This document shows, one piece after another, positions 5,014 to 27,835 of a stretch of DNA of 34,871 bases. How positions within the stretch are numbered: the stretch's first letter is position 1; every line of letters begins with the position of its first letter. This DNA is from a virus: the UHGV virus genome UHGV-0126185. The stretch is one strand, 5' to 3'. The position numbers and the translations under genes are program-made. The notes beneath the pieces were generated by a model that saw only the letters and a list, made by a program, of their open reading frames with translations, did no database searches and was not told the origin of the DNA.

Positions 5014-5531
5014 GAGTGACCCCTCCGCACTTTCAGCCTGTATTGTCCAGGGTTAAACGGTTTGTTGAAAAACAACCTGATGGGGCAACGCTCACCCATC
5101 TGACGCACAAAGTATCAGCATATAGCTCGTTGAGCCGGAAGGATAAAGAAAACCTGATCGATATCATCCGCGAAAACAGCCTGCTCTGCATTACTGATGA
5201 CGGCAGGACAACAACCCTGCATCACCCTAAGTTTGGTCATAAATCCGTGGCGCCGGTTATTGCGTCGTCGAAGACATTGAAGGAAGCCACTATGAATAAG
5301 CCAACCGTGACCCCTGAAGAATTACGCAAGCAGGCTGAAGCCCTCATTCGTGCCGCTGAAGAAGCTGAAAAAAAGGCAGGTGACCGCGCTGAAATAAAAA
5401 AGCAACTCGATCCTCTGAAGCTTGAAATCCTCCAGGCTTATGGAATGGCAAGCCGTAAGTTTGATGAGTTTGTGGATGCTATGGCGGACATGGGGAAGGC
5501 CGTACAGAAATTTAAAGATCTGACGGTATAA
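5010..5531 (+). CDS. hypothetical protein
   Basis: 173-aa ORF with GTG start overlapping the upstream stop (GTGA); C-terminal half is helical and charged; no recognisable motif. Confidence 0.4.
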   Translation: MRVTPPHFQPVLSRVKRFVEKQPDGATLTHLTHKVSAYSSLSRKDKENLIDIIRENSLLCITDDGRTTTLHHPKFGHKSVAPVIASSKTLKEATMNKPTVTPEELRKQAEALIRAAEEAEKKAGDRAEIKKQLDPLKLEILQAYGMASRKFDEFVDAMADMGKAVQKFKDLTV

Positions 5532-5541
5532 GGGGTGGGCA

Positions 5542-6597
5542 TTGAGAGCCTTACTTACCCCTGAAATGGTGCCACGCCTTGGCGTGGTGCTGTTCAAGCC
5601 AGGACGGGAGTTAATGCCCCTGTTTGCATCAGGTCGCGTGCTGGTTGAACGGGAGCCAGAAAACATGGCCCGGCTTCCGTCTGGTCGGATCCCCGATGCA
5701 CAGCAACCGCTACTGGATGATGCCAGCCTTCACACTTTCTTTACCGATGAACGGGTCATTACTGCTGCTGGTGGTATGTCCGGGCTTGAGTACTGGCTTC
5801 GTCAGCGCGTTAAAAAGTGCCAGTACCCTGTTTCTGACTACCATCATGCCGAGCTCACAACACTATGGCATCCGCCTGGCGCGCTGGTGGTGTGCTGGCA
5901 TTGCGATAACAAATTGCGTGGGCAGACTACGGAGAGGCTGCAGGCGCTTGCCCTGAGCAATGTTGCCGAGTGGGTTATTGATACCGTACTGGTTGGGCTT
6001 GGCTACAACAAAGAGCGCTCCCTCTCTTTAGCCGAGCTTTGCTGGTGGGCTGTTCAGTCAGGTGTCGCTGATGCCGTCACTGAAGGAATGGCGCAACGGG
6101 CACTACGGTTGCCAGACGAACCATTATTATCTGTTTACCGGGAAAGTGACATCGTACCTATGCCGCCGGCCACCAGCATTATGCAGGAAAAAGTCAGGCC
6201 GATTGAAACGTTACCAGCTCGGCGGTCAGACAGCCTGGATGTGGAAACCCAAAAGCCAATACTGACGTTAACCGTCGATCCGGAGTCTCCGGAGTCTTTC
6301 ATGCTCAGGCCAAAACGTCGCCGCTGGGTAAATGATACGTACACCCGCTGGGTTAAAACACAACCGTGTGAGTGTTGCCGACGGCCAGCAGATGATCCGC
6401 ACCATATCGTAGGGCACGGTATGGGTGGTACAGCAACAAAAGCCCATGACCTCTTCGTGATCCCTCTGTGCAGAGAGTGCCACGATGAGCTGCACGCCGA
6501 TGTACCGGCATTCGAGCAGAAGCATGGTACGCAGCTTGAGCTGCTACTGCGTTTTATGGATCGGGCGCTGGCGATCGGCGTAATTGCGAAAGCTTAA
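5542..6597 (+). CDS. DUF968-like nin-region protein with HNH-like Cys/His C-terminus (YdfU-like)
   Basis: 351 aa; C-terminus carries paired Cys and His motifs (CECCRR...DPHHIVGHGMGG...PLCRECHDELHA); sits between the antirepressor genes and Q, as DUF968 proteins do in lambdoid prophages. Confidence 0.6.
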   Translation: MRALLTPEMVPRLGVVLFKPGRELMPLFASGRVLVEREPENMARLPSGRIPDAQQPLLDDASLHTFFTDERVITAAGGMSGLEYWLRQRVKKCQYPVSDYHHAELTTLWHPPGALVVCWHCDNKLRGQTTERLQALALSNVAEWVIDTVLVGLGYNKERSLSLAELCWWAVQSGVADAVTEGMAQRALRLPDEPLLSVYRESDIVPMPPATSIMQEKVRPIETLPARRSDSLDVETQKPILTLTVDPESPESFMLRPKRRRWVNDTYTRWVKTQPCECCRRPADDPHHIVGHGMGGTATKAHDLFVIPLCRECHDELHADVPAFEQKHGTQLELLLRFMDRALAIGVIAKA

Positions 6598-15269: not shown

Positions 15270-16376
15270 ATGGTCCGCTCTGTCAATGACCGCCTGCAGG
15301 ACGAGACCATAGCGCATGGCCTGTATGTGACCCGCTATGGTAATGGCGTCGCCCGGCGCATGGTGGCGCTGCTGAGTAAGATGGATAATGACCTGGCGGC
15401 CAGGCTGCTGGTGCTGCTGGATGGCAAGCGCGCAGACACCTACAGTGCCCGCCGCCTGGCTTCGCTGCTGGCTGGCGTACGCGACCTGAACCAACAGGCC
15501 TATGAGCCAGTTAACGATGCGCTGGCGCGGGAACTGAGGCGCTACGTTGAGTATGAGGCCGGGTATCAGTTGGACCTGTTCAGCAGCATCATTCCGAAGC
15601 AGATCCTCACTCACGTTCCGCTTCAGAGCATTGCCCCCGAGCAGGTATACGCAGCAGCAGTGGCACAGCCCTTCCAGGGGCGCCTGCTGAAGGAGTGGGG
15701 CCAGAAGCTTGAAGCCGATCGGCTGGACAAAATCACCAACGCTGTGCGCTCCGGTTTCCTCCAGGGTGAAACGGTAGAGCAGATTGTCCGGCGCGTCGCT
15801 GGCACGCCGAATCTCAACCGTGAAGATGGGGTGATTCACGCTTCCCGGCGCGACCTTGCTGTGGTGACCCGTACGGCAGTGAACCATATGGCCGCCACGG
15901 CGCGCCAGGAGTTCGCCCAGACCAACAGCGATATCGTGAAGGCCAAGCAGTGGTCCTCAACCCTGGATACGCATACCAGCCAGTGGTGCATCATCCGCGA
16001 CCGCAAGCTCTACACGCTCGACGGCAAGCCGCTGGGGCATGTGGTCCCGTACCTGCGCGGTCCCGGCAAAATCCACTTTTGCTGCCGCTCCTGCGAAATC
16101 CTGATCACTAAATCGTGGGAGGAAATGCAAATAGCCTCAGGCGAACTGAGCAACGCCACGCGCGCCTCAATGGACGGACAGGTGCCAGCGCATACCAGCT
16201 ATGCCGAATGGCTCGTCAGGCAGCCGTACGCACGGCAGGAACAGGTGCTGGGCGTTACTCGCGTGCGGATGCTACGCGACGGCAAAATCACGGTGCCGGA
16301 GATGTTTAACGATGCCGGGGAATTTCTCACTCTGGATGAACTGCGCCGCGTGGATGCGTCGGCGTTTGAGGGTTAG
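15270..16376 (+). CDS. head morphogenesis protein (Mu F-like / SPP1 gp7-like)
   Basis: 368 aa following portal; conserved central region (VTRTAVNHMAATARQEF...) as in Mu F-family minor head proteins. Confidence 0.7.
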   Translation: MVRSVNDRLQDETIAHGLYVTRYGNGVARRMVALLSKMDNDLAARLLVLLDGKRADTYSARRLASLLAGVRDLNQQAYEPVNDALARELRRYVEYEAGYQLDLFSSIIPKQILTHVPLQSIAPEQVYAAAVAQPFQGRLLKEWGQKLEADRLDKITNAVRSGFLQGETVEQIVRRVAGTPNLNREDGVIHASRRDLAVVTRTAVNHMAATARQEFAQTNSDIVKAKQWSSTLDTHTSQWCIIRDRKLYTLDGKPLGHVVPYLRGPGKIHFCCRSCEILITKSWEEMQIASGELSNATRASMDGQVPAHTSYAEWLVRQPYARQEQVLGVTRVRMLRDGKITVPEMFNDAGEFLTLDELRRVDASAFEG

Positions 16377-22100: not shown

Positions 22101-22405
22101 GGCAGGTCGCCGCAGCGTTGTACACGCCGGGACCGACTCTCGCGGAACTGAGCGCTTTTGGTTTGACGCCTGAGGACGTGGAGGAAGAGGTGGGGATCCT
22201 GCCGTCGGTATGGAAAGCCTTCACTATCTTCTCCACGCTGGCGACTCAATGGCGCGTTGGCGCGGGTGGGGCGACCGGCCTTGATTACAACGTTCTCCCT
22301 TGGGTGTTTGAGTTACACGGGGTTGAGGATGCGGCGGCCTGCATGGCTGACCTTCAGATTATGGAAAGCGAGGCTCTCAAAGTAATGCACAAGGAGACGA
22401 AATAA
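22097..22405 (+). CDS. tail assembly chaperone gpT-like extension, expressed as a G-T fusion by -1 frameshift
   Basis: The ORF at 22118..22405 is in the -1 frame relative to G and stays open back to the slippery heptamer; it overlaps the tape measure start (TAATG). The lambda G/GT arrangement is conserved. Confidence 0.6.
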   Translation: MRQVAAALYTPGPTLAELSAFGLTPEDVEEEVGILPSVWKAFTIFSTLATQWRVGAGGATGLDYNVLPWVFELHGVEDAAACMADLQIMESEALKVMHKETK

Positions 22406-25400
22406 TGACAGACCAAATCGCCTCGATCACATTGCGTGCTGACGTATCCGATCTGAAAACAGCCAGCAATGAACTGGATAAACTCGGTGAAGCCGCGGCG
22501 GGTGCCGTCGGCAAAGCTGATGACCTCAACAGCGTATTCCGTGCTGGTGCTGAGTCTGCGAAGCAGGGCAGCGAAGGTATCAAAGAGCAGCAGATGGCGC
22601 TGAAAGGCCTGCTGGAGAATATCGACCCGGTAAACAAGGCGCTTAACCGGCTGGATGAACAGCAGGCCGCCCTGCGTAACTTCCAGACCAAAGGCTTCCT
22701 GGATACCGATGATTTTCAGCACTACAACAAAATCCTCGACGATACGCGGCTAAAGCTGACGGATACCGGCGAAGCTGCTGCCAGGGCACAAGCCGAACTG
22801 GCAGCGACTCAGGCCGCTGAGAAGCAGTCCGCTGCGCTGAAGAACCTGCTGGGCTCTATCGACCCGACGATCCGCGCATTCAACTCACTGGATGAGCAGC
22901 ACGCGCAGCTGGTGGCGCATTTCGAAGCTGGGCGCATCAACGGCGCGCAGTTCGAGCACTTCAATACAATCCTCAACCAGACGCGGGAGCGTCTGTCTGG
23001 CGTGGCTGACGTGCTGCCAGAGGCACTATCCCGACAGGAAGCAGCGGCGCGTCGTGCCGGTATATCGGTCGGCCAGTACAGCGCCGCGATGCGCACGCTA
23101 CCAGCACAGTTCACAGATATCGCCACACAGCTGGCTGGCGGTCAGTCGCCGTTCCTGATCCTGCTGCAACAGGGTGGGCAGATTAAAGACCAATTTGGTG
23201 GGGTTAAAGGGGCTCTATCGGGGGTGGGCGACTATTTACGCACTCTGTTAGGTTTCATTAATCCTATAACGATAGGTATTAGCGGCCTGGTTGTAGGCCT
23301 CGGGGCGATGGCTGTAGCTTGGTACAAAGGCAGCCAGGAAGCCAGTGAGTTTAATAAGCAGCTCATACTCACGGGTAATTATTCGGCCAGTTCGGCGAGT
23401 CAACTGTCAGACATGGCTCAAAAAATTGGAGGCTCCAGTGGTAAGGTTGCGGCTGCCGCTCGGACGCTCGCGGATGTGGTTGGGGTAGGGACGTTTAAAA
23501 CGGAGCAGCTCGAAACAGTTACCAGGGCGGCGCTGGCGATGCAGGAGGCCACTGGCCAGTCTGTTGACGCCACCATTAAGAACTTCCAAAAGCTGTATGC
23601 CAGCCCAACCAAGGCGGCGGAGGATCTTAATTCTACGCTCCATTTTCTTACCTCATCGCAATACGACTACATTTCGGCACTGGAGCGTCGGGGTGATAAA
23701 GAGGGAGCAGCAGAGGAGGCTGCAAAAGCTTATAGCCTAGCCGAGCAAAAGCGCAGCCAGCAAATCCTCGACAACATGGGATTAATTGAGAGAGCTGCTG
23801 GTAGCGTCAGCAAGGCCCTTAAGGGGATGTGGGATGAACTTCTGAATATTGGTCGCCCTGAAGCTCCGAACGACATGCTCCGCAAGATGCAGTCCGAACT
23901 TGCTGAGCGTGAGAAAGCCTTGCTTCCAGATAGACAGCGTCAGGGATATGGATATAGCTATGATGCGAGCAGTAACGATCAGGAATATGACGCACGTAGG
24001 AAAGCTCAGTTATCAGCGATAAGTGCTTTAAAGGCACAAATAGCGCCACTTCAGCAAGCTGCTCAGCTTCAGGAAGATATTAATGCTTCTATTCAGCAAG
24101 GAACCGAGGATGATAACAAGCGAACTAATGCCCTGATTTATCGAAACCGCATCCTTGAACAGTCAGCTACATGGCAGGAAAAACGCAGCAAGGCCCTGTC
24201 TGAACTTTGGAAAAATGTCGCGGCCTCGCCCGGCGACTGGAGCTCAGCACAGCGGCAGCAGGCTGTAGATGCCATTAATAAACAGTTTCATCCGGACAAA
24301 ACTCCCAAAACTCCAGCCGTTAAGGTTTCAACAGGTGATCGCTCAACCGACACCTACAATGCTGAGACTCTAGCTCTGCAAGCGCAGCTCAAAACGCTGC
24401 AGGATCATCGTGACATCAACGATGTAATCAGCCAGCAGCGTAAGCAGCAGTGGGAGTTAATCTCAAAAATCACCATCCTCGAGTCCACAGCTAACGATCC
24501 GAAAGGGCGTGCATTAACTTTCGATGAAAAATCGTTGCTGGCGAACAAAGAGAAGCTGCTGGCCCAGGCAGATATTAATGCCGGACTGGGTGATCAAATT
24601 GCCAAGCAGCAAAAATTGAACTCATTGGCTGACCAGGCAACTAAGTTCGCCCAGCAACAGTCTGCCAAGCAGGCGGAAATTGCGGCAGCAGCTAGAGGCT
24701 TGTCCACCAGAGAGGCTGAAAGGGAGGCGACGCGCCAGCGCCTGACTGAATCCTACGGCTTTAACCAAGACGCTCAGAAAAAGGTTCTCGCAGATCAAGA
24801 GGAGACCTACCGGAAAGAAGATGAACTTCGCAGCGACTGGCAGGCTGGCGCAAAGCGGGGCTGGGCCGATTATGCCGACTCAGCAACAAACACGTTTGAA
24901 GCAATGCGAAATGTGGCCGGTTCAACCTTCAGTGGTCTATCCGACATGTTGACAGATCTGGTTACTACCGGCACTGCAAGCTTCAAAGACTTCACCAAGT
25001 CCATGTTGAAGATGATCGCGCAGGTAACGAATCAGTTGCTTGTGGCTTACGCCGTTCAGGCTGCGATGGGGTGGATTAGCGGTAGTGCTGGTGGCAACAC
25101 GCCAGGCGGAGCATATGCCAGCGCTGCAAACTCTGGAGTTAGCCTGTTTGATTCCGGTGGTTACACAGGTGCGGGCGGTAAATATGAACCCGCAGGCATC
25201 GTGCATAAAGATGAGTTCGTTTTCACCAAAGAAGCCACTAGGCGGATCGGCGTAGATAACCTATATCGTCTAATGAACAACGGTAATTTAGGCCGTTACG
25301 CTTCTGGTGGGCTTGTTGGGGGAAATCAGGCTGGGGCGGCAGACTCTGGTGTGCCAATTATCAGCGTCAGTTTTGGTGACATAAACATTGGTTCAGGTGG

Positions 25401-25536
25401 ACAGGCCAATACAGGTGGCTCAGCAAATGCTGCAGCTATTGGCAGGCAACTCAACGATGCGATGATTGACACCATTAATACTCAAGTAAGAAAACCAGGC
25501 ACTCCGCTGTGGAATGCCGTTAGAGGGAAATACTAA
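22405..25536 (+). CDS. tail tape measure protein
   Basis: 1043 aa, highly helical with Ala/Gln-rich repeats and a Gly-rich central hydrophobic segment; canonical position after the G/GT chaperones. Confidence 0.9.
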   Translation: MTDQIASITLRADVSDLKTASNELDKLGEAAAGAVGKADDLNSVFRAGAESAKQGSEGIKEQQMALKGLLENIDPVNKALNRLDEQQAALRNFQTKGFLDTDDFQHYNKILDDTRLKLTDTGEAAARAQAELAATQAAEKQSAALKNLLGSIDPTIRAFNSLDEQHAQLVAHFEAGRINGAQFEHFNTILNQTRERLSGVADVLPEALSRQEAAARRAGISVGQYSAAMRTLPAQFTDIATQLAGGQSPFLILLQQGGQIKDQFGGVKGALSGVGDYLRTLLGFINPITIGISGLVVGLGAMAVAWYKGSQEASEFNKQLILTGNYSASSASQLSDMAQKIGGSSGKVAAAARTLADVVGVGTFKTEQLETVTRAALAMQEATGQSVDATIKNFQKLYASPTKAAEDLNSTLHFLTSSQYDYISALERRGDKEGAAEEAAKAYSLAEQKRSQQILDNMGLIERAAGSVSKALKGMWDELLNIGRPEAPNDMLRKMQSELAEREKALLPDRQRQGYGYSYDASSNDQEYDARRKAQLSAISALKAQIAPLQQAAQLQEDINASIQQGTEDDNKRTNALIYRNRILEQSATWQEKRSKALSELWKNVAASPGDWSSAQRQQAVDAINKQFHPDKTPKTPAVKVSTGDRSTDTYNAETLALQAQLKTLQDHRDINDVISQQRKQQWELISKITILESTANDPKGRALTFDEKSLLANKEKLLAQADINAGLGDQIAKQQKLNSLADQATKFAQQQSAKQAEIAAAARGLSTREAEREATRQRLTESYGFNQDAQKKVLADQEETYRKEDELRSDWQAGAKRGWADYADSATNTFEAMRNVAGSTFSGLSDMLTDLVTTGTASFKDFTKSMLKMIAQVTNQLLVAYAVQAAMGWISGSAGGNTPGGAYASAANSGVSLFDSGGYTGAGGKYEPAGIVHKDEFVFTKEATRRIGVDNLYRLMNNGNLGRYASGGLVGGNQAGAADSGVPIISVSFGDINIGSGGQANTGGSANAAAIGRQLNDAMIDTINTQVRKPGTPLWNAVRGKY

Positions 25537-25760
25537 TGAAAATTGCAGAAGTAAAGGTCTCTGATGTTGTTTGGTATGCCAACGAAAATGGAAAGGCGAT
25601 CAGTGCCTTCGTGACTTTCTATGGCCCAGACGATTGCACTCGCATTGCAAGTGTCCCTGTTAACTTGCCATATCAGCTAGACCTGACCCTTAAGCAAGTT
25701 GAAGAGCTTGCCATTGCCACTGCTAAGGGTACGCTAAAAGCGGTCGCTACTAGTTTCTGA
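25536..25760 (+). CDS. hypothetical small protein (cargo)
   Basis: 74 aa; start overlaps the tape measure stop (TAATG); lower GC than the backbone; no lambda counterpart between H and M. Confidence 0.45.
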   Translation: MKIAEVKVSDVVWYANENGKAISAFVTFYGPDDCTRIASVPVNLPYQLDLTLKQVEELAIATAKGTLKAVATSF

Positions 25761-25822
25761 TCGTTACATCCCTATCTCCCCTGGTTATCATGAGAAAAAA
25801 CATGATAATCATGGGGATGATA

Positions 25823-26233
25823 ATGAGAAAAATGTTTTGCTTAAGTTTGGCCTGTATTGCACTTACTGCGTGTAAACCTTCAGAGGAAAAAGCACTACAA
25901 CTCGGGCAACAAGAAATTGCAAATGGGTTGATGGATCCCGATAGCGCCAAATTTAAAATGGTTAGGTTCAATTTGGACAAAAACCAGCAGTCCGGGGATG
26001 TTGTGAGCGGTTTCGTATGTGGCAGGGTTGCTGGGAAGAATGGGCTTGGTGCGTATGTTGGCTACCATCCTTTCTATGTTCATATCAAGATGACTCCCAA
26101 AGGGGCGTTTTCTAAAGGCGTGAATTATGAGATCGGAGAAAAAGCGATATACCCCGATGGAAGAGATGAGTCATGGATAGATCTTGACGGAAACTCTTAT
26201 GTTAGCCGCTGCGGTGCCACACCATCCAAATGA
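25823..26233 (+). CDS. putative lipoprotein (cargo)
   Basis: ORF track starts at 25790; the ATG at 25823 has a gggga RBS and gives a signal peptide with lipobox LTAC (MRKMFCLSLACIALTAC); AT-rich. Confidence 0.55.
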   Translation: MRKMFCLSLACIALTACKPSEEKALQLGQQEIANGLMDPDSAKFKMVRFNLDKNQQSGDVVSGFVCGRVAGKNGLGAYVGYHPFYVHIKMTPKGAFSKGVNYEIGEKAIYPDGRDESWIDLDGNSYVSRCGATPSK

Positions 26234-26275
26234 GTTTATGTAGAGCCTTCTAACCACCACCACTCAACCGAAACC

Positions 26276-26302
26276 CAGCCTCGCTGACGCGGGGCTTTTT
26301 GT
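26276..26302 (+). terminator. putative intrinsic terminator after the lipoprotein gene
   Basis: Imperfect hairpin gcctcgc-tgac-gcggggc followed by TTTTTGTT. Confidence 0.4.
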
Positions 26303-26379
26303 TGCCAACGGGCTGGTGAATGCGGTTGAAATTTGAGCGCCACATTCAGAGGGCGCGAGATACTACAGCAATTTATGGT

Positions 26380-26540
26380 GCAATGCATTGTAAGCAGGGT
26401 CTGTTTTTGTGCAAAAAGTGCTATTTGTGCGCATTGGTACAGATTGAAACGCATTGGAACGTATTGCAACTTTGCACGATCATGTTGTGATTCTGCAATC
26501 ACCTTAGAGGTAATTTCGGTGAAACTGATTGCAACGTGCT
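26380..26540. promoter_or_regulatory. repeat-rich putative operator/promoter region upstream of the Doc-family module
   Basis: Perfect palindrome caatgcattg (26381-26390); direct repeats gcattggtac / gcattggaac (26431, 26451); ATTGCAAC at 26463 and 26528 with inverse TGCAAT at 26494; no convincing protein-coding frame. Confidence 0.3.
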
Positions 26541-26719
26541 TTAAGTGCTTCGGAAATGTCGTCGAACGTGCATCCATCTTCAGACATAGACCCATTGCTC
26601 AAATAAGAAGAATGGTATTAAATTGTCCTCAACCACTAAGAGTGGTCATGAATTCTTTGGATGTGTTTGCATCCTACAATTTGAGAAAGCACTGCCAAAC
26701 GTGCATGAGGGTGATAATC

Positions 26720-26899
26720 ATGGGTCACGCATTAAAAAAGGCAGATCGCTTGTACATTCCGCCTCGTGACAAATCCACAGTGGCGAAACCTCGTGCAGCG
26801 ATCAGCGAAGCATGTTCACATACTGGTCAAGTTAAAAATGCCTTTGAATTTGGATTTGCTCGTTACGAGAAGGCGATGGAAGAACTTTCAAAGGTCTGA
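26720..26899 (+). CDS. small ORF upstream of the Doc-family toxin (putative antitoxin)
   Basis: About 59 aa from the ATG at 26720 (gaggg RBS 8 nt upstream); alternative in-frame starts at 26648 and 26613; stop lies 10 nt before the toxin ATG; family not recognised. Confidence 0.4.
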   Translation: MGHALKKADRLYIPPRDKSTVAKPRAAISEACSHTGQVKNAFEFGFARYEKAMEELSKV

Positions 26900-26909
26900 G
26901 TAAAAACGG

Positions 26910-27407
26910 ATGACGATAGAGTATGTTGAAGGAATCAATTATCTTTCCATTGAAGATATAGTTTACATCAACAAGTCTCTGATCGAGACTCAGACGCCAA
27001 ATGAACCAATAGGTGTGCTGAATCCGAATAACCTCAGTTCTTCACAGTCCCGGCCAAGTACCATTCGATATTATGAGCAGACAGACGATATGTTTCGTCT
27101 GTCTGCTGTTCTAATTGAAAGTCTGATCCAGAATCATCCATTCGCAAATGCAAACAAACGCACCGCCATTATGACCGGTTACGTATTCCTGTTGCTGAAT
27201 GGATATGAGCTTACAGCACCTAGCGATGAGGTCGTTACAATCGCAGAGGGTTTGGCTCGTAAGGATTATTCAGTGGATGATCTGGAAAATTGGTTATGCC
27301 ACTGGTCTCGCGAGTATGATTCCAGAACATTATGTGCAACTGGCGGCAATTCGCTACAGGCTCTCGTGGCGACCTCGCAATACATTCGAATCATATCGAA
27401 TAACTGA
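26910..27407 (+). CDS. Doc-family (Fic/Doc) toxin
   Basis: 165 aa with the Doc signature HPFANANKRTA followed by a hydrophobic helix (IMTGYVFLLLNGYEL), matching the P1 Doc motif H-x-F-x-D/N-A/G-N-K-R-T-A; lysine at the position where Fic proteins carry glycine. Confidence 0.75.
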   Translation: MTIEYVEGINYLSIEDIVYINKSLIETQTPNEPIGVLNPNNLSSSQSRPSTIRYYEQTDDMFRLSAVLIESLIQNHPFANANKRTAIMTGYVFLLLNGYELTAPSDEVVTIAEGLARKDYSVDDLENWLCHWSREYDSRTLCATGGNSLQALVATSQYIRIISNN

Positions 27408-27452
27408 ATCCGCTGAGAGGCGTTTTTTGCAGATTAATACTGAACTATATAA

Positions 27453-27474
27453 CCCGCTTCGGCGGGTTTTTTTA
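27453..27474 (+). terminator. intrinsic terminator
   Basis: Hairpin cccgc-ttcg-gcggg followed by T7; same module as the terminator at 34557. Confidence 0.6.
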
Positions 27475-27484
27475 TGGAGCAAAT

Positions 27485-27835
27485 ATGGCCGTTGAGACAT
27501 ATAACTGGCACTCTCAACTGGGTGCTGGCGCAGTGGAATACAGCCAGACGGTGCGAACGGCTCAGTTTGGCGATGGTTATGAGCAGGTGGCCGAGAACGG
27601 CATTAACTCGACGGCTATTCAGGTACCGATGAAGCATGTGGGCGCTGATTCTGAAGTGAATACCGTTCGGGACTTTCTCCTGGCGCATACCGTTAAGGCT
27701 TTCATCATCACACCGCCGGGCGAAGAGAAGGGGCTATATCGCGTTGTCGCCGACTCCGTGCGCAAAAACCAGATTAGCAGCAAATTCGCTGAGCTGACAT
27801 TCACGATTAAGCGCGCCTATGGCGTCTATGCCTGA
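27485..27835 (+). CDS. minor tail protein M
   Basis: 116 aa; the motif QFGDGYEQVAENGINS matches lambda gpM (RFGDGYSQRAPAGLNA); precedes the L, K, I, J homologues. Confidence 0.8.
   Translation: MAVETYNWHSQLGAGAVEYSQTVRTAQFGDGYEQVAENGINSTAIQVPMKHVGADSEVNTVRDFLLAHTVKAFIITPPGEEKGLYRVVADSVRKNQISSKFAELTFTIKRAYGVYA

Follow-up and report, generated by a model that had tools for sequence, protein, structure and literature searches.

What does the long gene-free stretch in front of the Doc toxin gene of virus genome UHGV-0126185 do? This sequence of 34,871 nucleotides, the whole of which we call the window, comes from an HK639-like lambdoid phage (structural genes ~85% identical to those of HK639) and contains a gap of ~420 bp without genes between a terminator at 26277-26296 and an open reading frame (ORF) of 59 aa. 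A sequence-only reading had described here ~400 bp of repeat-dense non-coding DNA and proposed an operator array or a structured small RNA, possibly an RNA antitoxin. We found that the region is non-coding but that conservation is confined to an element of ~305 bp at 26321-26624; the rest, 26625-26719, is a leader specific to the Doc cassette and lies outside the conserved element. The element is probably the promoter and upstream control DNA of an exchangeable, self-contained moron cassette, a moron being a promoter-gene-terminator unit between phage genes, as defined for HK97 and HK022 (PMC3594210). The parts of the cassette and its left neighbour are as follows.

26277..26296, plus strand: intrinsic terminator of the upstream lipoprotein moron (terminator scan)
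26321..26624: conserved, non-coding 5' head of the cassette (the element, ~305 bp), with left end TGCGGTTGAAAT and a -10 hexamer as its right end
26595..26624, plus strand: predicted sigma-70 promoter of the cargo (-35 TTGCTC at 26595-26600, 18-nt spacer, -10 TAAATT at 26619-26624)
26720..26899, plus strand: putative protein antitoxin of 59 aa, with GAGG at 26707-26710 as its Shine-Dalgarno sequence
26910..27407, plus strand: Doc toxin of the Fic/DOC family (Pfam PF02661, E = 9.5e-12)
27451..27489, plus strand: conserved 3' adaptor, consisting of terminator AACCCGCTTCGGCGGGTT, a T-run, GGAG at 27476-27479 and ATGGC, the start of the downstream tail gene

By BLAST, identity of the element is 81% with Salmonella phage SW-37; with HK639, a phage of E. 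coli, it is 69%. The HK639 copy occupies the same place but lies 5' of a hypothetical protein and a YafO toxin. With an exact 20-mer seed from the most conserved block we retrieved 51 IMG/VR contigs together with Citrobacter genomes; an independent seed from another block added three further full copies and two truncated ones, and a two-block pattern search yielded 11 metagenome contigs. The family thus assembled comprises 69 copies, 52 of them unique, from HK639, SW-37, Citrobacter prophages and metagenomes. The element was not found in 5,426 complete E. coli genomes or in PLSDB plasmids, no second copy was found within the window, and HK639 and SW-37 are its only carriers in the phage collection searched. 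In every unique copy the element stands 5' of a two-gene cargo with antitoxin-toxin organisation, and the family covers six or more types of cargo and three or more contexts of insertion:

59-aa protein and Doc: about 21 unique copies
SocA/Panacea antitoxin and a 133-150-aa protein: 16 unique copies
190-202-aa protein and YafO: 7 unique copies
72-aa protein and a 280-aa membrane protein: 3 unique copies
second Panacea type and a 140-aa protein: 2 unique copies
other pairs: 3 unique copies

In the window the cassette separates the tape measure gene from gpM, which are adjacent in related phages. The genes gpK and gpI overlap directly in the window, and elsewhere the same cassette sits inside this overlap (13 unique copies). 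Another 30 copies follow a conserved terminator, the one at 26277..26296 in the window, whose stem shows compensatory changes and is kept in the alignments, and 9 lie elsewhere, including a nin-like region. Both main insertion sites host all main cargo types.

The two ends of the cassette jointly take over from the phage genes that it separates, the left one supplying a stop codon to the gene before it and the right one a start codon to the gene after it. On the right, the adaptor ACCCGCTTCGGCGGGTTTTTTTATGGAGnAAATATGGC ends more than 30 loci, irrespective of cargo class, before gpM or gpI (e.g. L018, L002 and L006). It consists of ACCCGCTTCGGCGGG, a run of seven T and ATGGAGnAAATATGGC, and provides the next gene (gpM, gpI or others) with a Shine-Dalgarno sequence and an ATG; its terminator stem varies in a compensatory manner (CCCAGCCCCGGCTGGG, CCCGCCTTATGGCGGG). 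In the window Doc is followed by two terminators and then by gpM, starting at 27485. On the left, the edge at 26324-26332 (GGTTGAAAT) holds a stop codon for the interrupted gene (L018, L020, L044, L047), and the TAA of GGTTAAAAT, which is TGA in the window, stops the truncated gpK in the copies between gpK and gpI. Adaptor and left-edge stop taken together, the cassette carries its own stop codon, predicted promoter, terminator, Shine-Dalgarno sequence and start codon. In the gpK insertions ...HKIVLGCG* takes the place of the gpK tail, and at L047 the frame that stops at the left-edge TAA is a small, unrelated, lipoprotein-like ORF.

Alignment of the copies resolves the element into conserved blocks separated by variable segments. 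In the window they are arranged as follows.

26324..26372: block B1, GGTTGAAATTTGAGCGCCACATTCAGAGGGCGCGAGATACTACAGCAAT
26381..26390: perfect 10-bp palindrome CAATGCATTG, of which the family keeps only the core TGCATT (26384-26389, block B2)
26405..26426: block B3, TTTTGTGCAAAAAGTGCTATTT, with an invariant 15-nt core TTGTGCAAAAAGTGC and the dyad TTTTG-TG-CAAAA inside
26431..26470, plus strand: tandem 10-bp units GCATTGGTAC AGATTGAAAC GCATTGGAAC GTATTGCAAC, consensus GCATTGGAAC, part of variant A of the central module
26471..26513: rest of the variant-A central module, TTTGCACGATCATGTTGTGATTCTGCAATC and then block ACCTTAGAGGTAA
26515..26523: block B5, dyad TTC-N3-GAA, TTCGGTGAA
within 26532..26570: block B6, CAACGTGCTTTAAGTGC, family consensus TAACTTGCAAAGTGGCC, of the TAAC.TGCAAAG type
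26558-26570: block B7, GTCGTCGAACGTG, consensus TTCGTCGAACGTG, TTC-GTC-GAA
after B7: a further conserved block, ATTGCT(C/T)AAA

A further conserved block, ACCT.AG.GGTAA, comes after B3 and before the first TTC-N3-GAA dyad. The triplet at 26327-26329 in B1 is TGA here and TAA in most copies. The core TTGTGCAAAAAGTGC is also invariant in the SW-37 and HK639 copies found by BLAST and in the three copies found with the independent seed, and it occurs once in the window and once in the HK639 genome. A degenerate direct copy of B3, GTGCTTTAAGTGCT, lies 127 bp downstream at 26536.

Between B3 and B5 the family uses interchangeable modules. Version A, which includes the 10-bp array, is present in 10 of the 52 unique copies with its ATTG phasing kept (besides the window: L003, L006, L007, L024, L033, L043, L049, L069 and L088). 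Version B, of equal length, carries CATAGG-N5-CCTATC plus AATAGT-TT-ACTATT and is found in 38 copies, and the remaining four have other versions. The type of module is independent of cargo, and the variable segments generally fall into a few discrete haplotypes of equal length. Spacing is kept as well. B1 and B3 are 50 or 51 nt apart. In 49 copies, 186 or 187 nt separate B3 from the -35 block; the other three are shorter by one helical turn, with 176 nt. The centres of the B5 and B7 dyads are 43 bp apart in both window and consensus, and the centre of B7 lies ~65-70 bp upstream of the predicted start site.

The repeats that had drawn attention to the locus are all present. The palindrome caatgcattg lies at 26381-26390. 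Of the four head-to-tail units, the first and the third are the direct repeats gcattggtac (26431-26440) and gcattggaac (26451-26460), spaced by 20 bp; Tandem Repeats Finder reports period 10 at 26431-26470, the array being counted as 2.8-4 copies. A related 18-mer, TGAAACTGATTGCAACGT, lies at 26520-26537. The half-sites are found at 26463-26470 and 26527-26534 (ATTGCAAC) and at 26379-26384 and 26494-26499 (TGCAAT). The tetramer TGCA is found 10 times in 26379-26706, and no other 330 bp of the 34.9-kb window are as rich in it (9 occurrences here versus 5 in the next best stretch); over all copies of the element its mean is 4.1 per 315 nt versus 1.16 in shuffled sequences. Hence the repeat-dense character goes beyond chance. 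Lack of conservation of the repeats across homologous loci had been named as what would refute the sequence-only reading, and for most copies this is what is seen: the 10-bp array is present only in the version-A minority. Repeat-dense, conserved and non-coding, the region most plausibly acts as cis-regulatory DNA, and to that extent the sequence-only reading is supported.

Tests over the copies gave no sign that the conservation serves a protein or an RNA. In six frames of 45 copies there was no ORF with a conserved start, and nucleotide diversity showed neither 3-nt periodicity nor an excess at third codon positions in any frame; copies are separated by 1-nt indels. The 119-aa minus-strand ORF and the Cys-rich plus frame are open only in the window-type variant, the latter only in the window and L003, where TGA became AGA. 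That same change opens a 188-aa frame at 26333-26899, in frame with the 59-aa ORF and with a GTG at 26520 preceded by AGAGG; this frame is not kept in the family. A search of Rfam at permissive E-values returned nothing relevant (best hit in the region, E = 1.9). With 44 copies aligned in 333 columns, the RNAalifold energy was -6.96 kcal/mol on the plus and -1.52 kcal/mol on the minus strand; the right half of the element gave 0.0. None of the pairs it predicted showed covariation, being invariant or broken, folding z-scores of single copies ranged from -1.3 to +1.4, and sliding windows on both strands revealed no conserved structure in the element. The check by covariance and folding across homologous loci therefore speaks against a structured small RNA. 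Length and helical phase are thus kept without coding or RNA pairing, which points to a constraint at the level of DNA, such as protein binding or looping.

A sigma-70 position-weight-matrix scan of 44 copies identified the predicted rightward promoter at the end of the element as the best conserved (median 7.7 bits, above 4 bits in 93% of copies). Its family -35 is TTGCT(C/T) and its -10 is TAAATT, TAAAAT or TAAGAT. Mutual homology of the cargo classes stops at or just past this -10, and the leaders beyond it are class-specific. The Doc class (class 1) has the palindrome ACCACT-AAG-AGTGGT at 26632..26646 (plus strand), at about +1 to +16. Across 18 unique leaders its arms are near-invariant while the centre is CCA, AAG, TGA, TAA, CGA or AAA; the window version folds at -7.2 kcal/mol, and ACCACT-N3-AGTGGT is a candidate operator or 5'-terminal mRNA hairpin. 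A second -10-like TACAAT without a good -35, at 26675..26680 on the plus strand, is conserved in class-1 leaders. The Panacea class (class 2) has TTATAGC-TG-GCTATAA overlapping the -10 and a leader of 38-40 nt with an AGAGG ribosome-binding site. In HK639, the leader that links the shared promoter to the first ORF of the YafO cassette contains, at 15506-15535 (L002 3376-3405), a strong terminator-like hairpin of -14.9 kcal/mol, GGGCUGAAGA...UCUUCGGCC with UUUCUU after it, which may be an attenuator.

We suggest the following working model. In the lysogen, antitoxin and toxin would be transcribed from this promoter, separately from the late operon. At least one host-encoded DNA-binding protein would bind to the blocks upstream of it, with TTTTG-TG-CAAAA/GTGC-A5-GTGC, the two TTC-N3-GAA dyads, the TGCA motifs and, in the window, the four helically phased 10-bp units as the proposed sites, and proteins bound on the same face of the helix may set or condition promoter activity. 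Since it is shared among phages, the element could in addition provide a homology arm for the swapping of cargo. It may also hold a weak leftward promoter, divergent from that of the cargo, with TAGTAT (reverse complement of 26360-26365) as its -10 and, in the window, TTTGCA-17-TACAAT as well. The host origin of the putative binder is what is left after two other sources. The OR/OL dyads of HK639 are of the ATAACC-N4-GGTTAT type, unlike the element, and its palindromes and blocks recur nowhere else in the 49.6-kb HK639 genome, so the prophage repressor is an unlikely binder. Regulation of the shared part by cassette-encoded proteins is also unlikely because cargo proteins differ by class and the 59-aa protein is predicted to be mostly disordered. 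AlphaFold2 predicts for the latter a disordered N-terminus and a single C-terminal helix (residues 34-57) with moderate confidence (mean pLDDT 71.7), and no DNA-binding domain appears in the model; for an antitoxin of this kind, a cargo-independent control region makes sense.

Several points weigh against this interpretation. We infer both promoter activity and protein binding from sequence patterns, and neither the -10 (TAAATT) nor the spacer of 18 nt is better than moderate. Given the seed that was used, ascertainment accounts for part of the invariance beside the 15-mer. Conservation of the blocks could partly reflect recent common descent and recombination rather than purifying selection, and the left parts of the haplotypes track the upstream context whereas the right parts track the cargo. 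To our knowledge, no block convincingly matches the consensus of CRP, LexA, sigma-54, sigma-E, MarA/SoxS/Rob or NtrC, and the same holds, as far as we know, for OmpR, Cra, PdhR/FadR, lambda CII, boxA and ops sites.

The haplotype pattern also underlies the main rival, in which the element is a recombination handle with no regulatory role besides its promoter: together with the 3' adaptor it would let phage recombinases swap cargo, and homologous exchange would keep the flank similar. This explanation, which we judge distinctly less probable but well worth keeping in mind, readily accommodates the presence of every cargo class at both main insertion sites, the mosaic of discrete haplotypes with linkage decaying from left to right, the conserved 3' adaptor, and the RecT-like and Gam-like recombination functions encoded by HK639-type phages. 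However, hitch-hiking does not predict invariant blocks of 9-22 nt beside segments of ~50% identity, nor a length kept to ±1 nt or to exactly one helical turn despite the exchange of non-homologous central modules.

A rather speculative extension would make the element a portable, cargo-independent nucleoprotein platform that switches prophage-borne toxin-antitoxin (TA) or abortive-infection cassettes on or off in response to a common signal, or alternatively a DNA-level self-immunity site like the aba element of BstA. The signal might be, for example, superinfection or prophage induction acting via a host factor, and the interchangeable central modules (10-bp array versus palindromes) would then represent alternative input specificities.

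We also considered, as a still fainter prospect, that B1-B3 are a leftward promoter and the conserved 5' part of a short unstructured RNA, which would run antisense into the upstream gene or its terminator and insulate the cassette or act by base-pairing. A leftward -10 TAGTAT (reverse complement of 26360-26365; TAGTAT/TAATAT in the family) scores above 4 bits in 98% of copies, with B2 placed as a weak -35, and the B1 sequence downstream of it is highly conserved; in the window, a second leftward arrangement, TTTGCA-17-TACAAT at 26415-26387, reaches 9.9 bits. Yet the -35 of the former is poor, and the TACAAT of the latter is missing from most copies. Neither a conserved terminator nor a conserved structure accompanies the supposed RNA: with 31 copies aligned, the one structure that alifold recovers is the terminator of the upstream gene, and no Rfam family matches. 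The TCTGA-N9-TCAGA hairpin in B1 was rejected as a terminator, being unconserved (missing, e.g., in L010) and altered in L007 by a double change that is not compensatory.

The idea that the region is an operator array to which the small downstream protein binds, or an RNA antitoxin for Doc, is largely refuted and has little probability left. Repeats and palindromes do lie 5' of a toxin-antitoxin module, and the ACCACT-N3-AGTGGT palindrome immediately beyond the element may serve as an operator. However, the element heads Panacea, YafO and other unrelated cargo, the repeats are confined to version A, and RNA structure is lacking. Doc is preceded instead by a conserved protein, the 59-aa partner without a predicted DNA-binding domain. 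We found 25 homologues of it (55-84 aa, mostly 59 aa), always with a Fic/Doc gene as neighbour, and in Providencia and Izhakiella prophages the pair exists without the element, behind short and unrelated upstream regions. As the element precedes unrelated cargo and such pairs do without it, it is neither a Doc operator nor an RNA antitoxin. Least probable of all is a small protein encoded by the element (minus strand ...(E/Q)D..TFD(D/E)....HFAS* or plus strand M.LTCKVAA.KFVE...): one minus-strand frame does retain a TAA/TAG/TGA stop codon in most copies, with a TTG/ATG start in class 1 and class 3, but it is startless in the Panacea-class (class-2) copies, 1-nt indels break the frames, third positions lack excess variation and no Shine-Dalgarno sequence lies within usable distance.

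With the element read as control DNA of a moron cassette, the locus can be compared with known systems. Like other morons, the cassette stands between adjacent tail genes (tape measure and gpM here, gpK and gpI elsewhere), has a predicted promoter, a terminator and a GC content below that of its neighbours, and carries cargo useful to a lysogen. Its own terminator is well supported by the compensatory stem variants, and its own promoter is predicted and conserved. Unlike other morons, this family combines one common ~305-bp 5' region and 3' adaptor with varying cargo, and its ends restore a stop codon to one of the genes it interrupts and a start codon to the other, an arrangement of which we found no description in the literature. 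The literature on HK639, morons, toxin-antitoxin systems and prophage defence hotspots likewise gave no description of the element.

The operators of type II TA systems, such as the antitoxin-autoregulated P1 phd-doc, resemble the element in having a promoter directly 5' of the pair and palindromes nearby. They are antitoxin-specific, however, whereas the element is common to unrelated antitoxins, other Doc modules do without it, and the model of the 59-aa antitoxin lacks a DNA-binding fold. Type III TA systems (ToxI) also have tandem direct repeats 5' of the toxin gene. There the units measure about 34-36 nt and directly precede the gene of an endoribonuclease toxin, in contrast to four units of 10 bp in a minority of copies here; Doc has a protein partner, and there is no terminator between repeats and toxin gene.

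Multi-site response-regulator promoters, such as those with TorR decamer boxes or OmpR sites, have helically phased direct repeats, as does the window copy with its four direct 10-bp units 5' of a promoter, and the units (TTGnAAC) may loosely resemble OmpR half-sites. In contrast to such promoters, ~160-200 bp lie between the array and the start site downstream of it, and most copies have palindromes in its place.

P2/P4 defence hotspots place variable cargo between conserved flanks (PMC9122126). These hotspots and integron cassettes resemble the present family in that interchangeable defence- or TA-like cargo is held within conserved bounds and the same cargo occurs in several places. Unlike integron cassettes, the element has no associated integrase or attC-like site; neither a recombinase ORF in or beside the cassettes nor a conserved long imperfect palindrome was found. 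Unlike in P2/P4 hotspots, the conserved flank is a non-coding promoter region and not core phage genes.

If our interpretation is correct, a set of lambdoid prophages of Enterobacterales carries TA- and defence-like genes in standardised plug-in cassettes, whose common 5' control region and 3' adaptor permit insertion between translationally coupled tail genes with gene function intact. This would provide a concrete mechanism for the spread, diversification and cargo swapping of morons, and a putative host factor would control the expression of prophage toxins. As regards the sequence-only reading, the ideas of an RNA antitoxin and of a Doc operator fall away. The core TTGTGCAAAAAGTGC and the 3' adaptor also provide a sequence handle for finding new two-gene cargo. 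No family in Pfam, NCBIfam or PADLOC was assigned to several of the pairs headed by the element, which are candidate new toxin-antitoxin or defence pairs; family-less cargo includes the 72-aa and 280-aa pairs of L005, L024 and L044, the 113-aa and 241-aa pair of L019, and the second genes (133-150 aa) of L018 and L033. The 59-aa protein has no family in these databases either.

The cassette is the second of two insertions in this part of the window. Its neighbours on the left are:

22405-25536: tape measure gene
25536-26233: 74-aa ORF and lipoprotein gene (147 aa), a second moron directly 5' of the cassette

The 74-aa ORF overlaps the stop codon of the tape measure gene, and neither it nor the 147-aa lipoprotein has a Pfam family. 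At the same position HK639, L006, L007 and L013 have other lipoproteins, each followed by the same terminator. GC content is 39-47% across 25700-27400 versus 51-56% in the flanking tail genes, which marks this interval as a moron region.

In SW-37, the closest relative (L001 3349-4147), the 59-aa ORF is split into 78 and 44 aa and Doc into 69, 63 and 51 aa; these frames are either pseudogenes or sequencing errors, and the record is unannotated. In the Izhakiella capsodis prophage (L078 3732-5669) the pair of 59-aa and Fic genes lies beside a KilA-N protein and a BstA_C-domain protein, and together they are a small defence cluster ending the tail-fibre region. The 20-mer TTTGTGCAAAAAGTGCTATT is present exactly in L058 (Buttiauxella), L061 (Pantoea), L054, L056 and L060, which otherwise have no likeness to the element. 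These stray matches, from Buttiauxella, Pantoea, Bacteroidaceae, Campylobacterales and Paenibacillus and in two cases from intergenic DNA of Enterobacterales, were treated as chance and not as members of the family (we estimate that about one would be expected). Finally, the truncated copies L063 (about 5320-5620) and L068 consist of blocks B1-B2 only, followed by ~100 nt of unrelated sequence and then by the terminator that elsewhere precedes the element; such copies may have arisen by decay or represent a small unit in their own right.

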